Source: Verrucomicrobiota bacterium
GTDB taxonomy: Bacteria > Verrucomicrobiota > Verrucomicrobiia > Limisphaerales > UBA11358
Assembly: GCA_049510395.1 (NCBI GenBank)
Contig: JBEKYY010000001.1
Location: 665-64,664 of the forward strand
Direction of reading: 5' to 3'
DNA: 64,000 nt
Position numbers and translations under genes: made by a program. The notes below the pieces were generated by a model. The model saw only the letters and a program-made list of their open reading frames with translations, made no database searches and was not told the origin of the DNA. Each line of letters opens with the position of its first letter. Within the stretch, counting starts at the first letter, position 1. Positions 3,763 to 59,258 of this stretch are shown here, piece after piece.

Positions 3763-3831
3763 GGAATCCAAAACGCATGCTGATTAAAAGAGTTTTGCGC
3801 AGACCGGAGCACTGTAAAGACGAAAAACGTA

Positions 3832-3895
3832 GTAGCCGCCGACATCAGTCGGCGCAAACTCCTTCTGATGAGCGCAGACTGACGTCCGCGGCTAC
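3832..3895. repeat. Second copy of the palindromic spacer element
   Basis: GTAGCCGCCGACATCAGTCGGCGC ... GCGCAGACTGACGTCCGCGGCTAC, colinear with 1588-1651. Confidence 0.7.
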
Positions 3896-3915
3896 AACTC
3901 GCCCGGACATCCGCG

Positions 3916-6006
3916 CTATTTTTTCAACGTCTCTAGGCCGGCTTCCCCACCAACGGGAGAACCGACAGATGCCGGTGGGTAAGGGACAGCCGTCCCTGTG
4001 CCTGGAGTTGATGCAAACGAAGGCAGATCTGCAAAAAACATGGTTAATGTCGTGGCGAACCAGGCCAACAGCACTGGAAGAAGATATCGTCCGGCAATGT
4101 GATCCTTGGTATAACCGATCACCAAGACCAGATTGGTGACGTTGAACAAGCTGGCAAAAACCACGCTGAACGCGGCCAAGGCGCCGATCAGCATCGCGAG
4201 GATCCAGACAATGACCCGGCGCCGGGTGGGAATGGCAAACCAAAGCGCCACCGTCAGCAACAGGCACAACCATGCCAGTCCGAGTGTCGAAGGATTATAC
4301 AACGATGAAAAGCCATCCCATCGGCCGACCCAGTGAAGTTGTCCGCCTTCATCACTCCAGTTTGCGAAGTCAGAGCTTACAAACAATCGGGCGAGCAGAA
4401 TCATGAAAATCCACGGACAGTTTGAAAGCGTGGTGCCGGGATTGTGCAGGGCGTAACCCGCCCAGCCCGACTCGAAGTGCAAAACAGGTATCCGGACGCG
4501 CAAACAGACGAAGGGCAAGGCCGCCAGAAAACAGAACACCAACATCCGCCAGACGCATGGTGACGGTTTCAATGAGGGCCGGGCCGAAGGCAGCAGCAGC
4601 CAGCTTCCCAGCAGTGCCAGAAATATGAAGCCCTCAAACTTTGACATGGCCGCCCCAAACAAAAGCGTCAGCCCAAGACCGAGCCGGGCGCGGTCTTTTC
4701 CCACCAGCCAGAAAGCGCATTGCACGAAACCCATGACGGTGAAAAAAATCATTGGCAAGGTGCCGCCTTCGTATTGGACATATTTCTGGGTGTCCGGCAA
4801 TAACAGCAGACCCAGGAGGGCGAAATGCGGGGCATGGAACCAGCTTTTTCCGGCACGGTTCAGCGAGGCCAGGGCGACCAGAAGAAACAGTAGTATCCAG
4901 GTGGGCCAGAACTTGGTCACAAATTCATCCACATGCCCGAGCGAGTCAAACGTGGCTGCATGCAGCGAAGGCACGAGCGTCGGATAATCCAGATGCGCAT
5001 GCGCCAGGCGCGGGTTGGAAAACCATTGCACCATCTCGCTCCCGGTGTAGAGGTGGATTATCTTCGCCTTGAGCAACCACGCCATGACCGAGTCGTAATC
5101 TACAATCCCCTGCAACCCGGCCAGACGGAAGAGAATCAAAAATACCAGCAATCCAGCCACAAAAAGCGCAATGGCGACAGGGCGGCGAATTATCCTCCAG
5201 TAACCGGCAACAATCCCAGTCAAATAGGCTTTGCGGTTGCGCCACATTTCCGCGATGCCGCCCAGTGCGGTTACAGAGAGAATCAAGCCTCGCCCTGAAA
5301 AACCATACAATTTGACGCCCAGTGTCAGTGCTGCCACGGCCATCATTCCCAGACCCAGACCATACGCCAGTTGTTCCACCAGCGGCATCCGCCCGCCCAA
5401 GGTGGGGAACAAAAAGCGGAACAGCCACATCCCCGCCAAGGTTGTCAGCAAAGGAAGCAGGAACGCGATAATCAGGTCAAAATAGGAGTCAAACCAATCC
5501 GGGTTGGCTGGTTCTTTGACGGCAAAATTTCTGAGCGCTGTCACTCGCAAAACTTCATCAGGGCTGATATCTACTCTTACATCGAATCCGTTGGTGAGAA
5601 TTTCCTGATCGGACTCGGATGTCCTGCCGAGAAAGCCATCCTTGGTTAATCGGGTTATATGATCCAGGCTCGTTCCCACCTCACGCGGAAACAAGTAATA
5701 GGTCGTGTAATAATAATACATAATCCGGCTGTAATTGGTAGGGCCAGTCATGTCCGTCATGAAAATACGCACATCTTTTGGCAGCATTAAATCGATGCGT
5801 CGATCTGCTTCAGAAGCTGAAATCCTTTCGCCGTCTCTATCCAAAATACCAGAAATCTTCGCCAATTGTTTCCCTCGAAGAATGGACTGCGCCAGGGACG
5901 GATATGGCTCCCGCACATCATCGTAATGCCTAAACTGCCACGCTATCACAAGGCTGGCAAAAGCCACCAGGGATGCTGCGACGATGGCTGACCAACGACT
6001 ATTCAT
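3916..6006 (-). CDS. Polytopic membrane protein, tandem paralog 3 (about 696 aa)
   Basis: The ORF track gives 3916-6015 with a TTG start; the ATG is at 6006. The C-terminal two thirds are near-identical to paralog 2. Confidence 0.8.
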   Translation of the reverse strand: MNSRWSAIVAASLVAFASLVIAWQFRHYDDVREPYPSLAQSILRGKQLAKISGILDRDGERISASEADRRIDLMLPKDVRIFMTDMTGPTNYSRIMYYYYTTYYLFPREVGTSLDHITRLTKDGFLGRTSESDQEILTNGFDVRVDISPDEVLRVTALRNFAVKEPANPDWFDSYFDLIIAFLLPLLTTLAGMWLFRFLFPTLGGRMPLVEQLAYGLGLGMMAVAALTLGVKLYGFSGRGLILSVTALGGIAEMWRNRKAYLTGIVAGYWRIIRRPVAIALFVAGLLVFLILFRLAGLQGIVDYDSVMAWLLKAKIIHLYTGSEMVQWFSNPRLAHAHLDYPTLVPSLHAATFDSLGHVDEFVTKFWPTWILLFLLVALASLNRAGKSWFHAPHFALLGLLLLPDTQKYVQYEGGTLPMIFFTVMGFVQCAFWLVGKDRARLGLGLTLLFGAAMSKFEGFIFLALLGSWLLLPSARPSLKPSPCVWRMLVFCFLAALPFVCLRVRIPVLHFESGWAGYALHNPGTTLSNCPWIFMILLARLFVSSDFANWSDEGGQLHWVGRWDGFSSLYNPSTLGLAWLCLLLTVALWFAIPTRRRVIVWILAMLIGALAAFSVVFASLFNVTNLVLVIGYTKDHIAGRYLLPVLLAWFATTLTMFFADLPSFASTPGTGTAVPYPPASVGSPVGGEAGLETLKK

Positions 6007-6083
6007 GGAATTCAAAACGCATGCTATATTATCGGAAAATGGTATCAGCCAGGGACTCGCGGAGCTCGTCCCTCCGAAATAAT

Positions 6084-7565
6084 TTAACCGCCAAGCGAAC
6101 CCGGATCGCCCACGTCGCCCTTGTTGAAATCCACGTATGCTTCCGTCAAATCGGCGGCGTAAATCACCGCGCTGGCCACGCCGAGATTCAGGTTGATATG
6201 CAGATCAAATTCCTTCGGCGCAACGACGGCACAAAGTTGTTTGAACGTCGCTCTCGTTGGCTGGCCATGTTTGAGGCCCCAAAGAATTTTCCCCCTGCCG
6301 CCTCGTCGCGCCGAAGCATCGGACGCGAAGGCGGAGTTGTAACCGATGTCCACCTTTTCCTCGACGATTTTCGCCGGCGAATAACCAAGCGCGTCAATGA
6401 TGCGGCCCCAGTTCGGGTCGCCGCCATGCCAGCTGGTTTTAACCAGCGGACTGTTGGCGACCGCGCGCGCCGCGGCATCGGCGTCCGCCGCCGTCTTTGC
6501 CCCGTACACGCGCACCGTCACGACGCGATGCACGCCCTCACCATCACGCACGATCATTTTGGCAAGTTCCAGGCAGACGTGATTGAGAGCCGCCTTGAAA
6601 ATTTTGAAATCATGGTGGGGCGAGACCCCGTTGAACCCCGACGTTTTGATTTTAGGACTCGAGAGGACTCTCGCCCCACCTTTCAAAATCGGATTTCCTG
6701 CCAAACCATTCGCCAAAACCAAAACCGTATCATTCGTGCTCATATCGCCATCCACGGTGATGCGATTGAAACTTTGCGCAACAGCCTCCTGCAAGGCGGC
6801 TTGAAGCACTCCGGCTTCAACCGCAACATCCGTTGTAATGAAACAAAGCATCGTCGCGTGCAGCGGCAGCGCAGCGGGCCGCTGGCCGTTGGTGCTCATG
6901 CCGGGCTGAATCATGCCCGCGCCCTTGCAAATGCCGCCCATGCGGACGGTCTTACCGCCCAGTTTGAACTCAACCGCGATTTGCTTGGGCCGCGTGTCGC
7001 TGGTCATGATGGCTTCGACGGCGTGGACCGCGTGACGCGATGAATTTCCAAGCAGCTTTGCGGCCTCCAGAATTCCGCGTTTGACGTTTCCCATCGGCAG
7101 CGTGACGCCGATACGTCCAGTTGAAGCAACCAAGACGTGTTCCGCGGGAATCTTTGGGAGGAACAGCGTGCCGCTGTCCCTGATTTTGGGGACGGCAACA
7201 TGCCGTCCCTCCCAGGGAATTGCCTTTGCGGCGATTCCCGTCATTTTGCGCGCGTCCTTCAATCCTTGTTTGCCGGTGCAGGCGTTGGCGTTGCTGGAAT
7301 TGACGACGATGGCCCGGGCGGTTCCTTTCCTGACGCGCTCAACACAAACCTTCACCGGCGCGGCGCAGACCTGATTCGTCGTGAACATGCCGGCAACCGT
7401 CGCCGGCGCCTCGGACACAATCAGCGCGAGATCGCGTTTTTGCCCCTTGTTCGAGCCTTTGCCGGTGCCGAGGCGTTTGATGTCGCAAAATACGCCACTG
7501 GCGAGGAAGCCTTTGGGCGCGATGACGGAACCTAAAATTGTTTTGAACTGCGTTTTCATTTTCAA
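6084..7565 (-). CDS. argJ: Bifunctional ornithine acetyltransferase / N-acetylglutamate synthase (ArgJ), with two in-frame repeat-derived inserts
   Basis: ArgJ-type sequence with the self-cleavage motif HATML/CFITTD, VASTGRIG and IVRDGEG. It is 493 aa, against roughly 400-410 aa as I recall for the family. Confidence 0.9.
   Translation of the reverse strand: MKMKTQFKTILGSVIAPKGFLASGVFCDIKRLGTGKGSNKGQKRDLALIVSEAPATVAGMFTTNQVCAAPVKVCVERVRKGTARAIVVNSSNANACTGKQGLKDARKMTGIAAKAIPWEGRHVAVPKIRDSGTLFLPKIPAEHVLVASTGRIGVTLPMGNVKRGILEAAKLLGNSSRHAVHAVEAIMTSDTRPKQIAVEFKLGGKTVRMGGICKGAGMIQPGMSTNGQRPAALPLHATMLCFITTDVAVEAGVLQAALQEAVAQSFNRITVDGDMSTNDTVLVLANGLAGNPILKGGARVLSSPKIKTSGFNGVSPHHDFKIFKAALNHVCLELAKMIVRDGEGVHRVVTVRVYGAKTAADADAAARAVANSPLVKTSWHGGDPNWGRIIDALGYSPAKIVEEKVDIGYNSAFASDASARRGGRGKILWGLKHGQPTRATFKQLCAVVAPKEFDLHINLNLGVASAVIYAADLTEAYVDFNKGDVGDPGSLGG
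6614..6680. repeat. Palindromic element, GGTGGGGCGAG family, inside argJ
   Basis: Arms are GGTGGGGCGAGA... and ...TCTCGCCCCACC, with extra flanking inverted ATTTTGAAA/TTTCAAAAT. It is translated in frame as GGARVLSSPKIKTSGFNGVSPHH. Confidence 0.85.
7156..7213. repeat. Palindromic element, GGGAGGGACGGC family, inside argJ
   Basis: GGGAGGAACAGCGTGCCGCTGTCCC tgatttt GGGGACGGCAACATGCCGTCCCTCCC. It is translated in frame as PWEGRHVAVPKIRDSGTLFLPK. Confidence 0.85.
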
Positions 7566-7716
7566 AGATTGATTGAACCACGAAACACACGAAATGACAC
7601 GAAAAACAGACAGTTCAGAGCGCGCAAAATTCAGTGTAGCGTCGAGCCTGTGGCTCGATTTTATTGGCGCACAGCGCCGACACTACAACCTTTCGTGTGG
7701 TTCGTGTATTTCGTGG

Positions 7717-9682: not shown

Positions 9683-9745
9683 GGGAGGGGCGCCGTGTCG
9701 GCGACCCAAATTTTCTTCCAAGGACGGCGACACGCCGTCCCTCCC
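9683..9745. repeat. Intergenic copy of the GGGAGGGACGGC-family palindrome
   Basis: GGGAGGGGCGCCGTGTCGGCGACCC aaattttcttccaa GGACGGCGACACGCCGTCCCTCCC. It lies between the rpsI terminator and the argC start. Confidence 0.85.
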
Positions 9746-13638: not shown

Positions 13639-13753
13639 TTTGGAAAAGTTAAGCCCGCCGCGAGACCCTGTCGAGCCGCCTTTGATTCGTAGCGGCGTCT
13701 CGGAAGAGCGCCGCAAACTTGATTCAAAATGACGGCACTCTGCCGGGGTGCCG

Positions 13754-15031
13754 CTACGGAATGACCCGCGCCGTCAGCAACAAATCCGGCCCGATCCGCT
13801 TCCATTCAACGTCGCGAAGTCGAATCACCTCCGCCAGACTCCGGGCGCCCTCTCCCGCAACGGCTTTTCGCGAATCGCGCCCGCCCAAAATTTTCGGCGC
13901 GTAGAAAAACGCGACGCGCTGGGCCAAACCACCGAGCAGGAACGACGCGTTCACCTCGCCACCGCCTTCGACCAGCAGATTCGTGACGTTTTGGGCACCG
14001 AGTTTTTTCAGCAGCCAGGGCAGTTTAACATGTTGGTGGGGCGAGGCTACTGACGAGCCGTCTCCGCTTCGCTTCGCCACGCCGAGGCCGGCTCGCGGGG
14101 ACGCTCGCCCCACCTTTTGTATTGGCGCGACCAATACATTCACTCGTCTGGCCAGGGCCGCCACACGATTCTTCGGTGCGGATTTGCTCGCGACAATGGT
14201 TGTCAGCGCGGCAAACCTGTCGTTTGCCACTTTCGCCTTCAAAGGCGTTCGCGCCATCGAATCCAGAATGATTCTCCGAATCGGTTTTGCCATCTTCCAT
14301 CTTCCATCTTCCATCCTCGTCCTGGCCGTCAGGCTCGGATCGTCCGCCAGAATCGTATTAATCCCGACCAGAACCGCATCCGCTCCCTGGCGCAACTTCA
14401 TGGCGCAAGCCCGCGCCACTTCGCCGGTAATCCATTTCGATTCGCCTGTTGCGGTGGCAATTTTGCCATCCATCGTCATCGCCGCCTTCACCGTGACGAA
14501 CGGTGTGCGGTGAACAATCCAGTGATTAAACACCTCGTTGAGCCGCTGGCATTCATCAGCCAGAATTTGGTGGGGCGAGCGTCCCCGCGAGCCGGGCCGC
14601 GGCTCGTCAGTAGCCTCGCCCCACCGCGTTACGGTGACACCAGCCCGTTTCAAGATTTTGAAAGCCCGGCCGGAATGTTTTGGGTTGGGATCGGTCGCGC
14701 CAATAACGACGCGCCTGATTCCGGCGGCTTTGATGGCTTCGGTGCAGGGCGGGGTGCGTCCTCGCGTGCAGCACGGTTCGAGCGTCACGTAAAGCGTCGA
14801 GCGGCGCGGGCTATGACCGCGGTTTTGCGCATCGCGGAGCGCCTCGATTTCCGCGTGCGGCCCGCCCGCGCGCCGGTGCCAGCCGCGCCCGATGATTTTG
14901 CCGCTTTTCACCAGCACCGCGCCCACCATGGGATTCGGCGACGTCGCGCCGTAGCCGCGCCACGCCAGACCAATGGCCAGTCGCAGGTGGCGCCAATCAC
15001 TTTGGGAAAAGAATTTTGGTCGCGTGCCCAT
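13754..15031 (-). CDS. ribD: Bifunctional riboflavin biosynthesis deaminase/reductase RibD, with two in-frame repeat-derived inserts
   Basis: It has the deaminase motifs HAEIEAL and TLEPCC..GRTPPC. I prefer the ATG at 15031 (MGTRPKFF) to the TTG at 15046. Confidence 0.9.
   Translation of the reverse strand: MGTRPKFFSQSDWRHLRLAIGLAWRGYGATSPNPMVGAVLVKSGKIIGRGWHRRAGGPHAEIEALRDAQNRGHSPRRSTLYVTLEPCCTRGRTPPCTEAIKAAGIRRVVIGATDPNPKHSGRAFKILKRAGVTVTRWGEATDEPRPGSRGRSPHQILADECQRLNEVFNHWIVHRTPFVTVKAAMTMDGKIATATGESKWITGEVARACAMKLRQGADAVLVGINTILADDPSLTARTRMEDGRWKMAKPIRRIILDSMARTPLKAKVANDRFAALTTIVASKSAPKNRVAALARRVNVLVAPIQKVGRASPRAGLGVAKRSGDGSSVASPHQHVKLPWLLKKLGAQNVTNLLVEGGGEVNASFLLGGLAQRVAFFYAPKILGGRDSRKAVAGEGARSLAEVIRLRDVEWKRIGPDLLLTARVIP
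14035..14114. repeat. GGTGGGGCGAG-family palindrome inside ribD (copy 1)
   Basis: GGTGGGGCGAGGCTACTGACGAGCC, a 30-nt loop, then GGCTCGCGGGGACGCTCGCCCCACC. It is translated as VGRASPRAGLGVAKRSGDGSSVASPHQ. Confidence 0.9.
14569..14625. repeat. GGTGGGGCGAG-family palindrome inside ribD (copy 2, opposite orientation)
   Basis: GGTGGGGCGAGCGTCCCCGCGAGCC gggccgc GGCTCGTCAGTAGCCTCGCCCCACC. The arms are the exact reverse complements of those in copy 1. It is 57 nt, equal to the 19 codons WGEATDEPRPGSRGRSPHQ. Confidence 0.9.
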
Positions 15032-23503: not shown

Positions 23504-23600
23504 TCGGTTCTTGCCGGTCGGACTTTCGAATTCTCGCGCGTGACGGGGTCGGAGAAACTCCAGCCGGGAAATGAAAAACTGCCAAGGAAGTCTAGAGTTC

Positions 23601-23666
23601 AAAGTCCAAGGCCCAAAGTCAACTGCTCGGACGCTTCTTTGGACATTGGACTTTGGACCTTGGACT
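23601..23666. repeat. Inverted GTCCAAGG/CCAAAGTC repeat
   Basis: AAAGTCCAAGGCCCAAAGTC ... GGACTTTGGACCTTGGACT. A related AAGTCCAAAGTCC motif occurs at 38061-38124. Confidence 0.7.
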
Positions 23667-24076: not shown

Positions 24077-24130
24077 ATTACTGTGCGACCCCAAATTATT
24101 TCAACTGTGAATTATAATTGCTGCCGTCAG

Positions 24131-24186
24131 GTAGGGCTCGCTCTCCGAGCGGGCCGCAGCGGCGCGCTGGGGACAGCGCGCCCTAC
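24131..24186. repeat. GTAGGGC...GCCCTAC palindromic element
   Basis: GTAGGGCTCGCTCTCCGAGCGGGCCGC a GCGGCGCGCTGGGGACAGCGCGCCCTAC. It has the same architecture as 36866-36943. Confidence 0.75.
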
Positions 24187-24198
24187 CAACTTATTGCC

Positions 24199-29862: not shown

Positions 29863-30277
29863 AAAAACTGGCGGCGGGGAAGTTAAACACAAATTAGGGC
29901 TGGAATCCAAGAAGCAAAGTGGGCTGGCATTGCCATGTGGAATTTACCGGTGCTCAATCACCGCATTCCGCATCCATGTCAGCCCATGGCAAGCTACGCC
30001 CGGTTTTGGAGAATGCAAGGGCGGGAAAACTGGAAATTAATCCTGAACTCCGAAGTTAAATTTCTGCGTTGGCGGAGTGCGGCCGTCCCGGCCGCAGCCA
30101 AGTAAGGTGGGCGGCGGTTGGGAAATGTTCCATGGCTCGGATGAAGCCAGTTGCTGCGCCCGAGGACGGGCTCACTCCCACAGGGCCTCGTCCGGCAACT
30201 TCGGAGTTCGGTTTAATTGCTGTCCGCTCCTCCGCACTCCACAACATCGGGTGCAGCTTGACACCGCCGCCAATTTC

Positions 30278-30310
30278 TCCCTCTCCGCCAACGAAGTTGG
30301 GGGAGAGGGA
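30278..30310. repeat. Hairpin repeat on the left IS flank (translates as SP..GEGE)
   Basis: TCCCTCTCC gccaacgaagttgg GGAGAGGGA. It is preceded by a GTGTCAAGCTGCACCC-type block on the minus strand. Confidence 0.7.
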
Positions 30311-30349
30311 CGGGGAGGGCACGGTGCCAACAGATGGGTGACAACAAAG

Positions 30350-31639
30350 GGCCAAGACATAGGTAACAGTTTTTGGTTGTATCTGTTGTTTTTCCGCGGC
30401 TATGCCGTGGAAATATCTCTCGTTGGTCGAAGCGCGTCGTCGCTTCGTGGAATTGGTGTTCAAGGCCCAGGAACCGTTTGTGCAACTTTGTCATCGGTTT
30501 CATATCAGCCGCAAAACTGGCTACAAATGGAAGGAACGTTTTTTGGCCGGTGGTTGTCGCAATCTGCGCGATCAGTCGCGTCGGCCCAAACGTCCTGCCC
30601 ATTCGATTCGAGCCCATTGGATTGCGCGCCTTCGTCAGTTGCGTCGGCGTCGGCGTCACTGGGGAAGCAGGAAAATTCAGGCTTGTCTGCGTCGGCAGTA
30701 TCCGCACCAGAGAGTGCCGGCGGTGCGGACCATCAGCCGATACCTTCAACGCCTGAAGTTGTCTGGGGCGCGCCGCCGGCCTCAGCGCAAAGGACCCCTG
30801 GTAGTTCGGTCGGCTCTGAGTGCTGCCCGAAAATCCAACCAAGTATGGACCGTCGACTTCAAAGGCTGGTTCCGCACACGCAATGGTCAACGAGTGGAAC
30901 CCTTGACCGTTCGCGATCTGTTCAGTCGATACCTGCTGGCGATAGTCTTGTTGCCCGATCAGCAATGGCGACCCGTTCGGGCAGTTTTTATGCGGTTGTT
31001 CGGCAAGTATGGACTGCCCGCGATCATTCGGGTGGACAACGGCGGACCCTTTGCTTCCCGTGGGCCAGCGGGTTTGTCGCGTCTGAGCGCATGGTGGACG
31101 GCCCTAGGCATTCGTGTGGAGTTTATCGATCCAGGCCATCCAGAACAAAATGCTGGCCACGAACAGAGGCATCGAATGCTGAAGGCAGAAACGACCCGCT
31201 CGGTATCGAGCACGATGCGGGCACAGCAACGCCGAACCAACCGTTGGCTACGGATCTACAATCAGGAACGTCCTCACGAAGCTTTGGGGCAGCGCCCTCC
31301 GGCTTTACTATATCGAGTCACCCGACCCCCGAGTGCGCCAAGAGTGGTGCTTTGGAAGTATCCCAAAGGTTGGGACGTTCGCAGTGTTCGCAGCAACGGG
31401 CAGATTCGATGGCTGGGGCGGCTGCGATTTGTAGGAGAAGCTTTCGTCGGCCACAAACTTGGCCTGAAGCGATTGTCCAATGGATGCTGGTCGGTTTATT
31501 TCCGCTCACTTCTCTTGGGCGAATTACACGCGTTGGATGCTGGCGGACTCCGGCCTTCGGCCTACGTCCGCCAGCATCCGACCAAACCCAAACAAGTGTA
31601 ACCTATGTTGTGGCCTCATCTGTCACCTATGTTCTGGCC
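30350..31639 (+). mobile_element. IS481-family insertion sequence (about 1.29 kb)
   Basis: The inverted repeats are GGCCAAGACATAGGTAACAG (30350-30369) and CTGTCACCTATGTTCTGGCC (31620-31639), 17/20 complementary. An extra tandem copy of the right repeat lies at 31596-31615. The element has a single DDE ORF. Confidence 0.75.
30402..31601 (+). CDS. IS481-family DDE transposase
   Basis: It has an N-terminal HTH and an rve-type core with VWTVDFKGW, IRVDNGGPF and PGHPEQNAGHEQ..LKAE. Confidence 0.8.
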   Translation: MPWKYLSLVEARRRFVELVFKAQEPFVQLCHRFHISRKTGYKWKERFLAGGCRNLRDQSRRPKRPAHSIRAHWIARLRQLRRRRRHWGSRKIQACLRRQYPHQRVPAVRTISRYLQRLKLSGARRRPQRKGPLVVRSALSAARKSNQVWTVDFKGWFRTRNGQRVEPLTVRDLFSRYLLAIVLLPDQQWRPVRAVFMRLFGKYGLPAIIRVDNGGPFASRGPAGLSRLSAWWTALGIRVEFIDPGHPEQNAGHEQRHRMLKAETTRSVSSTMRAQQRRTNRWLRIYNQERPHEALGQRPPALLYRVTRPPSAPRVVLWKYPKGWDVRSVRSNGQIRWLGRLRFVGEAFVGHKLGLKRLSNGCWSVYFRSLLLGELHALDAGGLRPSAYVRQHPTKPKQV

Positions 31640-31673
31640 ACGTTCCGAGAGGTGGCGCGTTTAAATTCAAATC

Positions 31674-31713
31674 CCCTCGCCCCAGCCCTCTCCCCGCTCG
31701 GGCGGGGCGAGGG
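31674..31713. repeat. Hairpin repeat on the right IS flank (translates as SP..GEG)
   Basis: CCCTCGCCCC ... GGGGCGAGGG followed by GTGTCAAGTTGCGCCC. It is inverted relative to the left-flank copy. Confidence 0.7.
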
Positions 31714-31795
31714 AGTCGGGGGGAGTGTCAAGTTGCGCCCCACAACATCCCGGACTGCGGATTGACGTTGAAGTCGCCTTTGTTAGATTGAAACC

Positions 31796-36865: not shown

Positions 36866-36943
36866 GGTAGGGCGCGATGTCCTCATCGCGCCGCGGTATA
36901 AAACGCACACCCAAGCGGCGGGCTGAGGACAGCCCGCCCTACC
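36866..36943. repeat. GGTAGGGCG...CGCCCTACC palindromic element
   Basis: GGTAGGGCGCGATGTCCTCATCGCGCCGC ... GCGGCGGGCTGAGGACAGCCCGCCCTACC. The right arm contains the stop codon of the 36939 gene. Confidence 0.8.
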
Positions 36944-54839: not shown

Positions 54840-54912
54840 AGTTCAAACCGCCACGGATGAAACACGGATTGCGCGGGAAGCGAAAGGAAAAAGCTGCACG
54901 TAGCGGCGTCTT

Positions 54913-54956
54913 GGCAGAGCGCTGCAGATCGTTCAATGAGTTTGCGGCGCTCTGCC
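54913..54956. repeat. Perfect 10-bp-stem inverted repeat between pcm and carB
   Basis: GGCAGAGCGC, a 24-nt loop, then GCGCTCTGCC. No T-tract follows on the minus strand. Confidence 0.7.
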
Positions 54957-54985
54957 GAGTCGCCAAATTGCCCGCCACCCGGCCT

Positions 54986-59188: not shown

Positions 59189-59258
59189 GGTGGGGCGAGC
59201 GTACTCGCGAGCCTTATCCGGGAATTTACAAACGGCTCGCGGGGACGCTCGCCCCACC
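59189..59258. repeat. GGTGGGGCGAG-family palindrome at the DUF2339/DUF3999 gene junction
   Basis: GGTGGGGCGAGCGTACTCGCGAGCC, a 20-nt loop, then GGCTCGCGGGGACGCTCGCCCCACC. Confidence 0.9.

Follow-up and report, generated by a model that had tools for sequence, protein, structure and literature searches.

Short palindromic repeats that lie inside bacterial genes have been described before. REP (repetitive extragenic palindromic) sequences tagged with GTAG or CGTC were reported within genes by Di Nocera, De Gregorio and Rocco (2013, BMC Genomics 14:522; PMC3733652), and the Verrucomicrobium Opitutus terrae had more intragenic GTAG REPs than any other organism. According to the same study, REP dimers in frame in known genes encode 20-30 amino acids, one O. 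terrae REP family has its GTAG tag mutated to GTGG, and the Rickettsia palindromic elements (RPEs) RPE-4 and RPE-6 were equated with CGTC REPs; the occurrence of different REPs at about one site was a single case, Xanthomonas recB (PMC3733652). The biology of REPINs (REP doublets forming hairpins) and of their RAYTs (REP-associated tyrosine transposases) is established in Pseudomonas (Bertels and Rainey, 2011, PLoS Genet 7:e1002132; PMC3116915). Here we analyse palindromic repeats in argJ, the gene of a bifunctional glutamate N-acetyltransferase/ornithine acetyltransferase (OAT), in a stretch of 64,000 nucleotides (nt), hereafter the window, from a Verrucomicrobiota bacterium of the order Limisphaerales (assembly GCA_049510395.1, contig JBEKYY010000001.1).

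Three short palindromic repeats have, in all likelihood, inserted into the coding sequence (CDS) of this argJ and are translated as extra loops, and one of them, element ii, is in the same measure likely to be a REPIN copied by a RAYT. An earlier sequence-only reading of this DNA had proposed in-frame palindromic insertions of the RPE kind in argJ and had thought them undescribed for this kind of organism. The intragenic REPs of O. terrae make the latter claim wrong at the level of the phylum (PMC3733652). Full-text literature searches for repeats in Limisphaerales or Pedosphaera, or in argJ, returned nothing.

argJ and its palindromic inserts

The gene and the features within it are as follows.

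6084..7565, minus strand: argJ, bifunctional glutamate N-acetyltransferase/ornithine acetyltransferase (Pfam ArgJ, E=5e-124)
6852..6854, minus strand: codon of the autoproteolytic/catalytic Thr in LHATMLCFITTD, invariant in 222/222 orthologues
7156..7213: element ii, a family-ii REP doublet (probable REPIN) at ArgJ site 1, with GGGAGG/CCTCCC on the outside and two hairpins inside
6614..6680: element i, a palindrome of family i at ArgJ site 2; termini GGTGGGGCGAG...CTCGCCCCACC, arm of a decayed 'C-type'
6298..6334: element iii, a hairpin of 37 nt at ArgJ site 3, CCGCCTTCGCG..CGCGACGAGGCGG on the sense strand

Elements i and ii are the two unrelated palindromes recognised in the sequence-only reading; both lie exactly where it had placed them, in frame and free of stop codons, whereas element iii, at 6298-6334, had been overlooked. 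Element ii is read as WEGRHVAVPKIRDSGTLFLP (aa 116-135; codons 7155-7214), and in its minimum-energy fold the outer stem encloses the two inner hairpins, GACGGCA-TGT-TGCCGTC and GGAACAGCG-TGC-CGCTGTCCC, which are separate stems differing by compensatory pair changes. Element i has a 12-13-bp outer stem with arms GGTGGGGCGAGA/TCTCGCCCCACC; it is translated as GGARVLSSPKIKTSGFNGVSPHH, and its peptide GGARVLSSPKIKTSGFNGVSPH occupies aa 294-315 when residues are numbered from the ATG start. Element iii, palindromic and variable between lineages, is read as AFASDASARRG (aa 410-420); its folding energy is -17.2 kcal/mol (z -3.4). For the elements as single strands of DNA, folding energies range from -17 to -32 kcal/mol, and z-scores against shuffled controls from -3.3 to -8.1.

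Counted from a TTG at 7565, the argJ open reading frame (ORF) encodes 493 aa; the start used by ArgJ orthologues is the ATG at 7559, which gives 491 aa. The protein from an independent Joint Genome Institute contig (P0001) is 100% identical to this ArgJ. Its match to the Pfam ArgJ profile stretches 442 residues over 363 profile positions. The catalytic Thr aligns with the ATLL/TMLS motifs in 1vz6 (OAT2 from Streptomyces clavuligerus, crystallised) and 1vra; as the sequence-only reading had said of the self-cleavage motif, HATML is intact, and all family-invariant residues are kept. Synonymous third codon positions are 61-78% identical to those of orthologues, compared with 80-87% overall nucleotide identity in the core. 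Synonymous sites thus diverge much faster than amino acids, which indicates purifying selection. A second argJ is absent from the window, and the single copy sits in the conserved context rplM-rpsI-argC-methyltransferase-argJ.

An AlphaFold prediction with 61 close orthologues was unusable (predicted local distance difference test, pLDDT, 37); after actinobacterial ArgJ sequences had been added, the mixed Verrucomicrobia and Actinobacteria alignment gave a model with pLDDT 78 and a predicted template modelling score (pTM) of 0.83, which Foldseek matched to 1vz6_A (TMt 0.89, E=4.7e-34). Pfam, the alignment and Foldseek thus place the protein in the ArgJ family by its domain, its self-cleaving Thr in (H)ATML and its OAT fold, respectively, with cleavage and activity as predictions. 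Internal segments with pLDDT below 50 are 32-37, 119-129, 296-309 and 411-422, the last three being the three inserts; the C-terminus (479-491) is also low. In the model the inserts fall between secondary-structure elements (helix H96-113 and strand E142-146 for site 1; E278-283 and H314-339 for site 2) or just past strand E404-409 (site 3). They would therefore occupy surface loops of an otherwise intact predicted fold, and the enzyme is probably still functional with its extra peptides, as the sequence-only reading had supposed, judging from the intact ORF, the purifying selection and the model.

Two further features of ArgJ were noted. A 9-aa segment, LGTGKGSNK, at aa 30-38 (window ~7446-7472) is found throughout the clade and is absent from actinobacterial ArgJ and 1vz6; this loop is fixed, clade-specific and non-polymorphic, with low pLDDT at 32-37. 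A fourth length-variable spot lies at aa 228-234, before the catalytic Thr at the C-terminal end of the alpha chain (window ~6858-6880), where orthologues carry 0-10 extra residues (..PAA|LHATML, ..ALPLHATML, ..ALSQGGLHATML, ..ALPGGRPQGLHATML, ..ALPLQRFNASTLHATML) that are not obviously palindromic.

Presence, absence and turnover among orthologues

The survey comprised 222 ArgJ proteins of 436-512 aa from Verrucomicrobia/Limisphaerales metagenome-assembled genomes (MAGs), 76-89% identical to the query. A profile search for distant ArgJ retrieved the same clade and added about 100 insert-free orthologues; for one protein (P0085) no contig placement was found. Insert-free ArgJ of this clade has 436-448 aa, longer than the roughly 400-410 aa that the sequence-only reading had given for the family.

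At site 1 (query aa 116-135), 142/222 proteins lack element ii, as do the proteins of contigs L002, L005 and L007, and have instead an 18-aa stretch, REMTALLAKxLHMPAEHV, that aligns without gaps to 1vz6. The other 80 are filled with inserts of 17-32 aa, which fall into five recurring types (WEGRH; VAAVYDRR..TDRRYK; VAANMSSRP..ERSY with a VPLCG variant; VAAFVKTRE..RFDKR; VAAHESSR) and one singleton. Site 2 (aa 294-315) holds one of six REP-type inserts in 70/222 proteins (GGARV..SPH, VGRASSRAGSSVASPH, VAADVRRL..SLPRLL, VGDEVTSL..SSRRLL, VAANVSS..QARL, GGRASS..ASPS), plus a singleton; element i is missing from L001, L007 and 152/222 orthologues. Site 3 (aa 410-420) is empty in 162/222, while 33 carry the +10-aa AFASDASARRG type, 23 a +11-aa APASAKSASARQ type, and the rest a few intermediate lengths. 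Inserts are present at all three sites in 14 orthologues, as in the query, and at one site or more in 129/222, all of these being full-length ORFs.

Codon alignments with six orthologous loci revealed clean in-frame insertion within one or two codons of the same position, and the boundaries of the lineage-variable inserts coincide with the boundaries of the repeats. The proposal of RPE-like in-frame insertion is thereby borne out, both by presence/absence polymorphism among close orthologues and by the dispersed copies of the families described below. Other REPs found in orthologues at these argJ sites bear GTAG tags. In L006, for instance, the foreign insert DNA is a REP doublet, GTAG-CCGCGAAC-GTAA-GTTCGCGG-AAA-CCGCGCTT-TCAC-AAGCGCGG-CTAC, whose stems differ by compensatory changes.

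The distribution of these states on a neighbour-joining tree (398 core columns, 120 of the orthologues) requires 29, 55 and 38 changes at sites 1, 2 and 3, against minima of 5, 8 and 5 and shuffled values of about 63, 79 and 48. States at sites 1 and 2 combine almost freely. Different elements may share the same flank (MTEIAAKA followed by WEGRH.. or by VAAVYDRR..), and some insertions are nested: in P0007 a second hairpin lies within the family-ii element, and the VPLCG variant contains a micro-hairpin. We read this pattern as elements being gained and replaced repeatedly at sites that already hold a hairpin.

Where an orthologue shares an element with the query, the element is the better conserved part of the gene. 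A shared element ii is identical in 59/60 nt compared with 86% of the core, and in 19/19 third positions compared with 72%; for a shared element i the figures are 62/66 nt compared with 80%, and 18/20 third positions compared with 64%. This excess could mean that the hairpin is constrained or that the element is younger.

A separate kind of variation is seen in the short alleles of site 2 (17, 22 or 24 aa; 152/222), which are tandem arrays of a 7-nt unit that differs by lineage. The unit is AGTTCGG, four times repeated, in L007 (L007:855-2204), and the peptides of others imply AAGTTCA, GAAGTCA, GAAATCG or AACATTC. These alleles (e.g. L007 and L001:145-1518; window ~6600-6700) share a common end in host ..AATTTTC (F-Q), and they look like a coding minisatellite undergoing concerted evolution in a loop that REPs also use.

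Two repeat families, their probable mobility and their hosts

Both palindromes recognised at first belong to dispersed families. Within the window, GGTGGGGCGAG-N28-58-CTCGCCCCACC matches four times (6614, 14035, 14569, 59189; 0.00 expected from shuffles), in agreement with the kinship that the sequence-only reading had seen between these places, and the family-ii arm matches twice (7190-7213, 9722-9745; again 0.00 from shuffles). The termini of family i match at least 120 stretches of genome, which belong almost entirely to Verrucomicrobia subdivision 3/Limisphaerales, and among the matches listed several MAGs have 4-7 family-i loci each. The 127 family-i elements among these matches have arms of 25-26 nt in three variants (A, CGTCCYCGCGAGCCG; B, GCTACTGACGAGCCG; C, ACTCCGTCGAGCC) and spacers of 0-45 nt that define subfamilies. 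The copies of the two families outside argJ in the window are these.

9683..9745: family-ii REP doublet, intergenic, between the argC start (9667) and a terminator-like hairpin farther upstream on the minus strand
14035..14114: family-i element in frame in ribD, B/A arms with a 28-nt spacer, read as VGRASPRAGLGVAKRSGDGSSVASPH
14569..14625: family-i element in frame in ribD, A/B arms with a 5-nt spacer, read as WGEATDEPRPGSRGRSPH
59189..59258: family-i element by a DUF3999 gene, A/A arms forming a near-perfect 25-bp hairpin

The sequence-only reading had counted these repeats as lying outside genes. This holds for the intergenic copy at 9683-9745 and probably for 59189-59258, which lies between an upstream ATG (MKRQ..) and a downstream signal-peptide Met (MNWLCVFALAVAG..) of the DUF3999 gene, probably in its 5′ leader; automatic annotation would probably count this repeat as protein. 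The two ribD copies are in frame within the gene, the one at 14569-14625 falling between the RibD deaminase and reductase domains.

The family-ii arm occurs on at least 120 metagenome contigs, usually as a doublet of 56-60 nt with an A+T-rich spacer. Each unit forms its own stem-loop and the units stand as inverted doublets, as in REPs; the outer tag is GGGAGG, without GTAG. With E. coli RayT as the tblastn probe on the collected contigs, 159-aa RAYT ORFs were found on seven of them (L130, L136, L150, L177, L188, L218, L230), lying between or directly beside family-ii arms (for example L150:405-881 and L218:3210-3686) on contigs from peat and soil metagenomes. The 159-aa ORF matches E. coli RayT with E=5e-10, and the alignment of these ORFs with RayT takes in the HUH (PDHLHLF) and Tyr (WNYVRENP) motifs. 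Two ORFs scanned against NCBIfam NF047646 (REP-associated tyrosine transposase) scored 81.4 and 81.1 bits, above the cut-off of 80, and the Pfam Y1_Tnp match of the RAYT-like ORFs is weak (E=0.005). RAYT ORFs flanked by family-ii arms constitute the defining REPtron arrangement, which identifies element ii as a REPIN. Degraded RAYT-like ORFs accompany other GTAG REP types, namely the GTAGCGGCGGTC-type (L019) and the GTAGCAGCCGACGTGAGGAGGCTC-type (L109, L184), and at L189:9127-9606 a 53%-identical RAYT is flanked by GGTAGGGC-type REPs. In other orthologues, the GTAGCGGCGGTC- and GTAGCAGCCGACGTGAGGAGGCTC-type families also occupy sites 1 and 2 of ArgJ.

Family i is nearly always paired (129 pairs against 6 solos, most of the solos with a mutated partner; counted by occurrence, 123 of 129 are doublets). 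Its arms pair with each other and form weak hairpins when alone, unlike REPs with their own stem-loop. Its outer tag is G-GTGG, a variant described among the REPs of O. terrae. Direct repeats of 2-8 nt flanking 130 family-i elements were at chance level, and there was no constant insert length, with a weak pyrimidine preference 5′ of the element. The lack of a target-site duplication fits single-strand transposition of the HUH/Y1 kind and argues against a DDE enzyme; for family ii the 18 doublets tested were too few to judge.

Many copies of both families lie within genes. A copy was called intragenic if it was spanned by an ORF of at least 150 aa that extended 30 aa or more to either side of it and whose flanks had a positive codon score; among the matches listed this applied to 59/127 (46%) of family i and 38/120 (32%) of family ii, compared with 67% of random 70-nt segments. 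These figures depart from the predominantly extragenic location that marks REPs, and 'extragenic' is a poor label for repeats of which roughly one third to half are intragenic. All nine host ORFs checked by Pfam are real genes, encoding alpha-2-macroglobulin (A2M), GH106, Mfd, LeuRS, HrpA, HsdR, MutS, CstA and a DUF255 protein. Each of the three codon phases is used by family i (26/15/21), which gives recurring peptides (GGA(R/S)V.., VGRAS.., WGEA.., with endings ..SPH, ..LAPP and ..RPT). In these MAGs, hairpin peptides of 10-25 aa inflate the lengths of genes, the limits of domains and the alignments of orthologues. Hypothetical proteins rich in VGRASSRAG, ASPH, SLAPP or WEGRH are probably repeat read-through.

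In the scheme that we favour, element ii would most likely have been copied into argJ as single-stranded DNA by an HUH/Y1 RAYT, without target duplication, and element i would represent a second widespread family, with GTGG-tagged 25-nt arms, that behaves like it. The G+C-rich hairpins are open in nearly all reading frames, so that an insertion that adds a multiple of three nucleotides in total and falls in a permissive surface loop may escape purifying selection and persist, with the core of the enzyme, its self-cleavage motif and its fold left untouched. The two main ArgJ loops would then be recurrent sites of landing and replacement, used by REP families that differ by lineage. We infer both the mobilisation of the elements by RAYTs and the mode of their replacement.

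Several observations weigh against this scheme or parts of it. The linkage of family ii to a RAYT comes from seven metagenome contigs, not from the source genome. No RAYT was seen beside family-i arms in ~1 Mb, and since these arms moreover pair mutually, the REP membership of element i is not established. The core lengths of family i are not multiples of three, which leaves the inserted unit, or any accompanying indels, undefined. Element iii has no dispersed copies in ~1.7 Mb and so may not be mobile. Calls of CDS versus intergenic position come from an ORF-length and codon-score heuristic, the translation of the inserts and the activity of ArgJ are deduced from the DNA, and a weak neighbour-joining tree, or recombination, could partly explain the high homoplasy.

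The origin of element i is the point on which an alternative has most to offer. It may be a terminal-inverted-repeat element resembling a MITE (a miniature transposable element with inverted repeats) and moved by another transposase, with RAYT dependence limited to element ii; we regard this as a possibility to be taken seriously, if a minority one. Arms of ~25 nt that pair mutually and not with themselves, the almost exclusive occurrence as pairs with spacers defining subfamilies, and the absence of RAYT-like ORFs beside family-i arms in the ~1 Mb all agree with it. Such an origin fits poorly with the lack of target-site duplication in 130 elements, which speaks against a DDE transposase, and with the outer GTGG, which matches the GTAG-to-GTGG variant of the O. 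terrae REPs. Nor was a longer element, such as an insertion sequence (IS), with family-i termini and a transposase gene seen among solo arms and pairs in ~1 Mb, though no systematic search was made. A different alternative concerns what keeps the hairpins in place: they could be retained for a role as nucleic acid (stabilisation of, or pausing on, the arg operon mRNA, or a site for gyrase, IHF or RAYT), the peptides being a by-product. That elements i and ii exceed their host gene in conservation and that compensatory changes preserve each REP stem would suit such a role, but equal conservation is predicted by younger copies or by homogenisation from other genomic copies; many orthologues are insert-free at each site, so that no insert is required, and unrelated families are interchangeable at one site. 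We consider this unlikely.

Two further readings would remove mobile insertion, or its translation, from the account. Were argJ a decaying pseudogene, or were the inserts left untranslated through RNA excision or ribosomal bypass, the heavy load of three inserts in one enzyme would be easier to understand. Yet the catalytic Thr and every invariant residue are present in an unbroken ORF, synonymous sites are far more divergent than amino acids, the predicted fold is preserved, and the window has one argJ, in its conserved gene context. The 14 orthologues with three filled sites, like the 129/222 with at least one, are full-length ORFs, and inserts that are excised or bypassed need be neither in frame nor stop-free; decay or bypass is accordingly very improbable. 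The extra segments might finally be old lineage-specific ArgJ loops whose likeness to repeats is incidental, and insert types common to several orthologues do point to some vertical inheritance. This is hardly credible and already contradicted, since over 120 copies scattered through unrelated genes and spacers have the same exact arms of 11-24 nt (0.00 expected by chance), and orthologues 80-89% identical lack the inserts and are colinear with 1vz6.

The scheme of RAYT-borne insertion can be taken further, at the price of much lower confidence. In subdivision-3 Verrucomicrobia, loops such as ArgJ sites 1 and 2 might be preferred landing pads where an incoming hairpin replaces the resident one, so that RAYT-REP lineages would compete for, and rewrite, loops of housekeeping enzymes, with the hairpins under selection at the nucleotide level. 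We think this improbable as it stands; if true, intragenic REPINs would be a maintained source of loop diversity and not tolerated junk.

Other repeats in the window and comparison with known systems

A generic inverted-repeat finder proved noisy (43 matches in the window compared with 18-28 in shuffles), and long-arm elements were therefore judged singly instead. The following were recorded beyond families i and ii.

3829..3898: GTAG-tagged REP doublet, non-coding, 3′ of the gene at 3916-6015
7636..7686: GTAG-tagged REP doublet, intergenic, upstream of argJ (direct sequence reading)
13688..13758: palindrome with 35-nt arms, CGTAGCGGCG...CGCCGCTACG, occupying the space from the ribD stop (13754-13756) to the ribE start
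24130..24187: GTAG-tagged REP doublet, non-coding, upstream of pfkB
36866..36943: GTAG-tagged REP doublet, intergenic

The arms of the doublet at 36866-36943 are perfect 9-bp hairpins with compensatory differences (GGCGCGATG-TCCT-CATCGCGCC and GGCGGGCTG-TCCT-CAGCCCGCC). The palindrome at 13688-13758, to which an arm at 54905-54964 is related, was rejected as a candidate insertion in ribE because it lies upstream of the MFTGIV start (~13638); that at 24130-24187 was likewise rejected as an insertion in pfkB, being upstream of its start. The ORF at 30047-31765, which runs across two palindromes, was not counted as a gene, having no Pfam hit and a junk-like translation. Heptamer arrays form a further class: inverted arrays of CACGAAA type (7578-7606 and 7691-7716) flank the REP doublet at 7636-7686, an inverted TTGGACY array at 23589-23666 resembles them, and a CCATCTT array of four units at 14290-14316 in ribD, read as ..RMEDGRWKM.., is a third non-core segment of that gene besides its two family-i elements.

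Among described systems, the GTAG/CGTC-tagged REPs, including those within O. terrae genes, are the closest. They share with the present repeats short G+C-rich palindromes, inverted dimers, variable spacers and 'heterodimers' of two stem variants, and their hosts (HrpA, DNA-repair genes, tRNA synthetases) are of the kinds found here, although argJ and ribD are not among the REP hosts reported in PMC3733652. The present repeats differ in belonging to the order Limisphaerales (subdivision 3), in their sequence families and in the GGGAGG tag of family ii; about one third to half of the copies are intragenic, and not a small minority, and across the 222 orthologues at least five to six families alternate at the same two codon positions in a single housekeeping enzyme.

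With the REPIN-RAYT system of Pseudomonas, family ii shares the inverted-REP doublet that forms a long hairpin, its non-autonomous nature and a RAYT flanked by the same REPs, a single-copy cognate RAYT gene being a feature of that system. The classical REPINs of Pseudomonas and Enterobacteria are overwhelmingly extragenic, whereas many copies here appear to be translated, and the action of the RAYT on these hairpins is a prediction. Bacterial MITEs in ORFs (Coxiella, PMC5896051; reviewed in PMC3184786 and PMC10969869) are similar in being small, non-autonomous, inverted-repeat elements that add peptides. They differ in being normally derived from ISs, with a conserved interior and target-site duplications, whereas family i has variable spacers and lacks duplications.

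RPEs (Ogata et al., 2000, 2002, Claverie and Ogata, 2003, cited in PMC3733652) are in-frame palindromes in conserved genes at loops compatible with the fold, with several unrelated families per genome. The argJ inserts are likewise in-frame insertions into a conserved protein gene at fold-compatible positions, a likeness that is one of description by analogy and not of sequence membership in RPE-1 to RPE-10. RPEs are A+T-rich, ~100-150 nt long (RPE-1), have no known transposase and reside in an obligate intracellular alphaproteobacterium; the repeats described here are 37-80 nt long and G+C-rich, their hosts are free-living in soil or peat, and a RAYT is linked to at least one of the families.

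What is new is therefore the host clade with its sequence families, the RAYT link of a frequently translated family, the very high intragenic share and the use of the same two ArgJ sites by five to six REP families across orthologues. Translated REP/REPIN insertions are thereby extended to abundant and mostly uncultured Verrucomicrobia of soil and peat, and one intragenic family is tied directly to a RAYT transposase. The ArgJ loops offer a natural system in which to ask whether REPINs target existing hairpins and how much insertion an enzyme loop tolerates.

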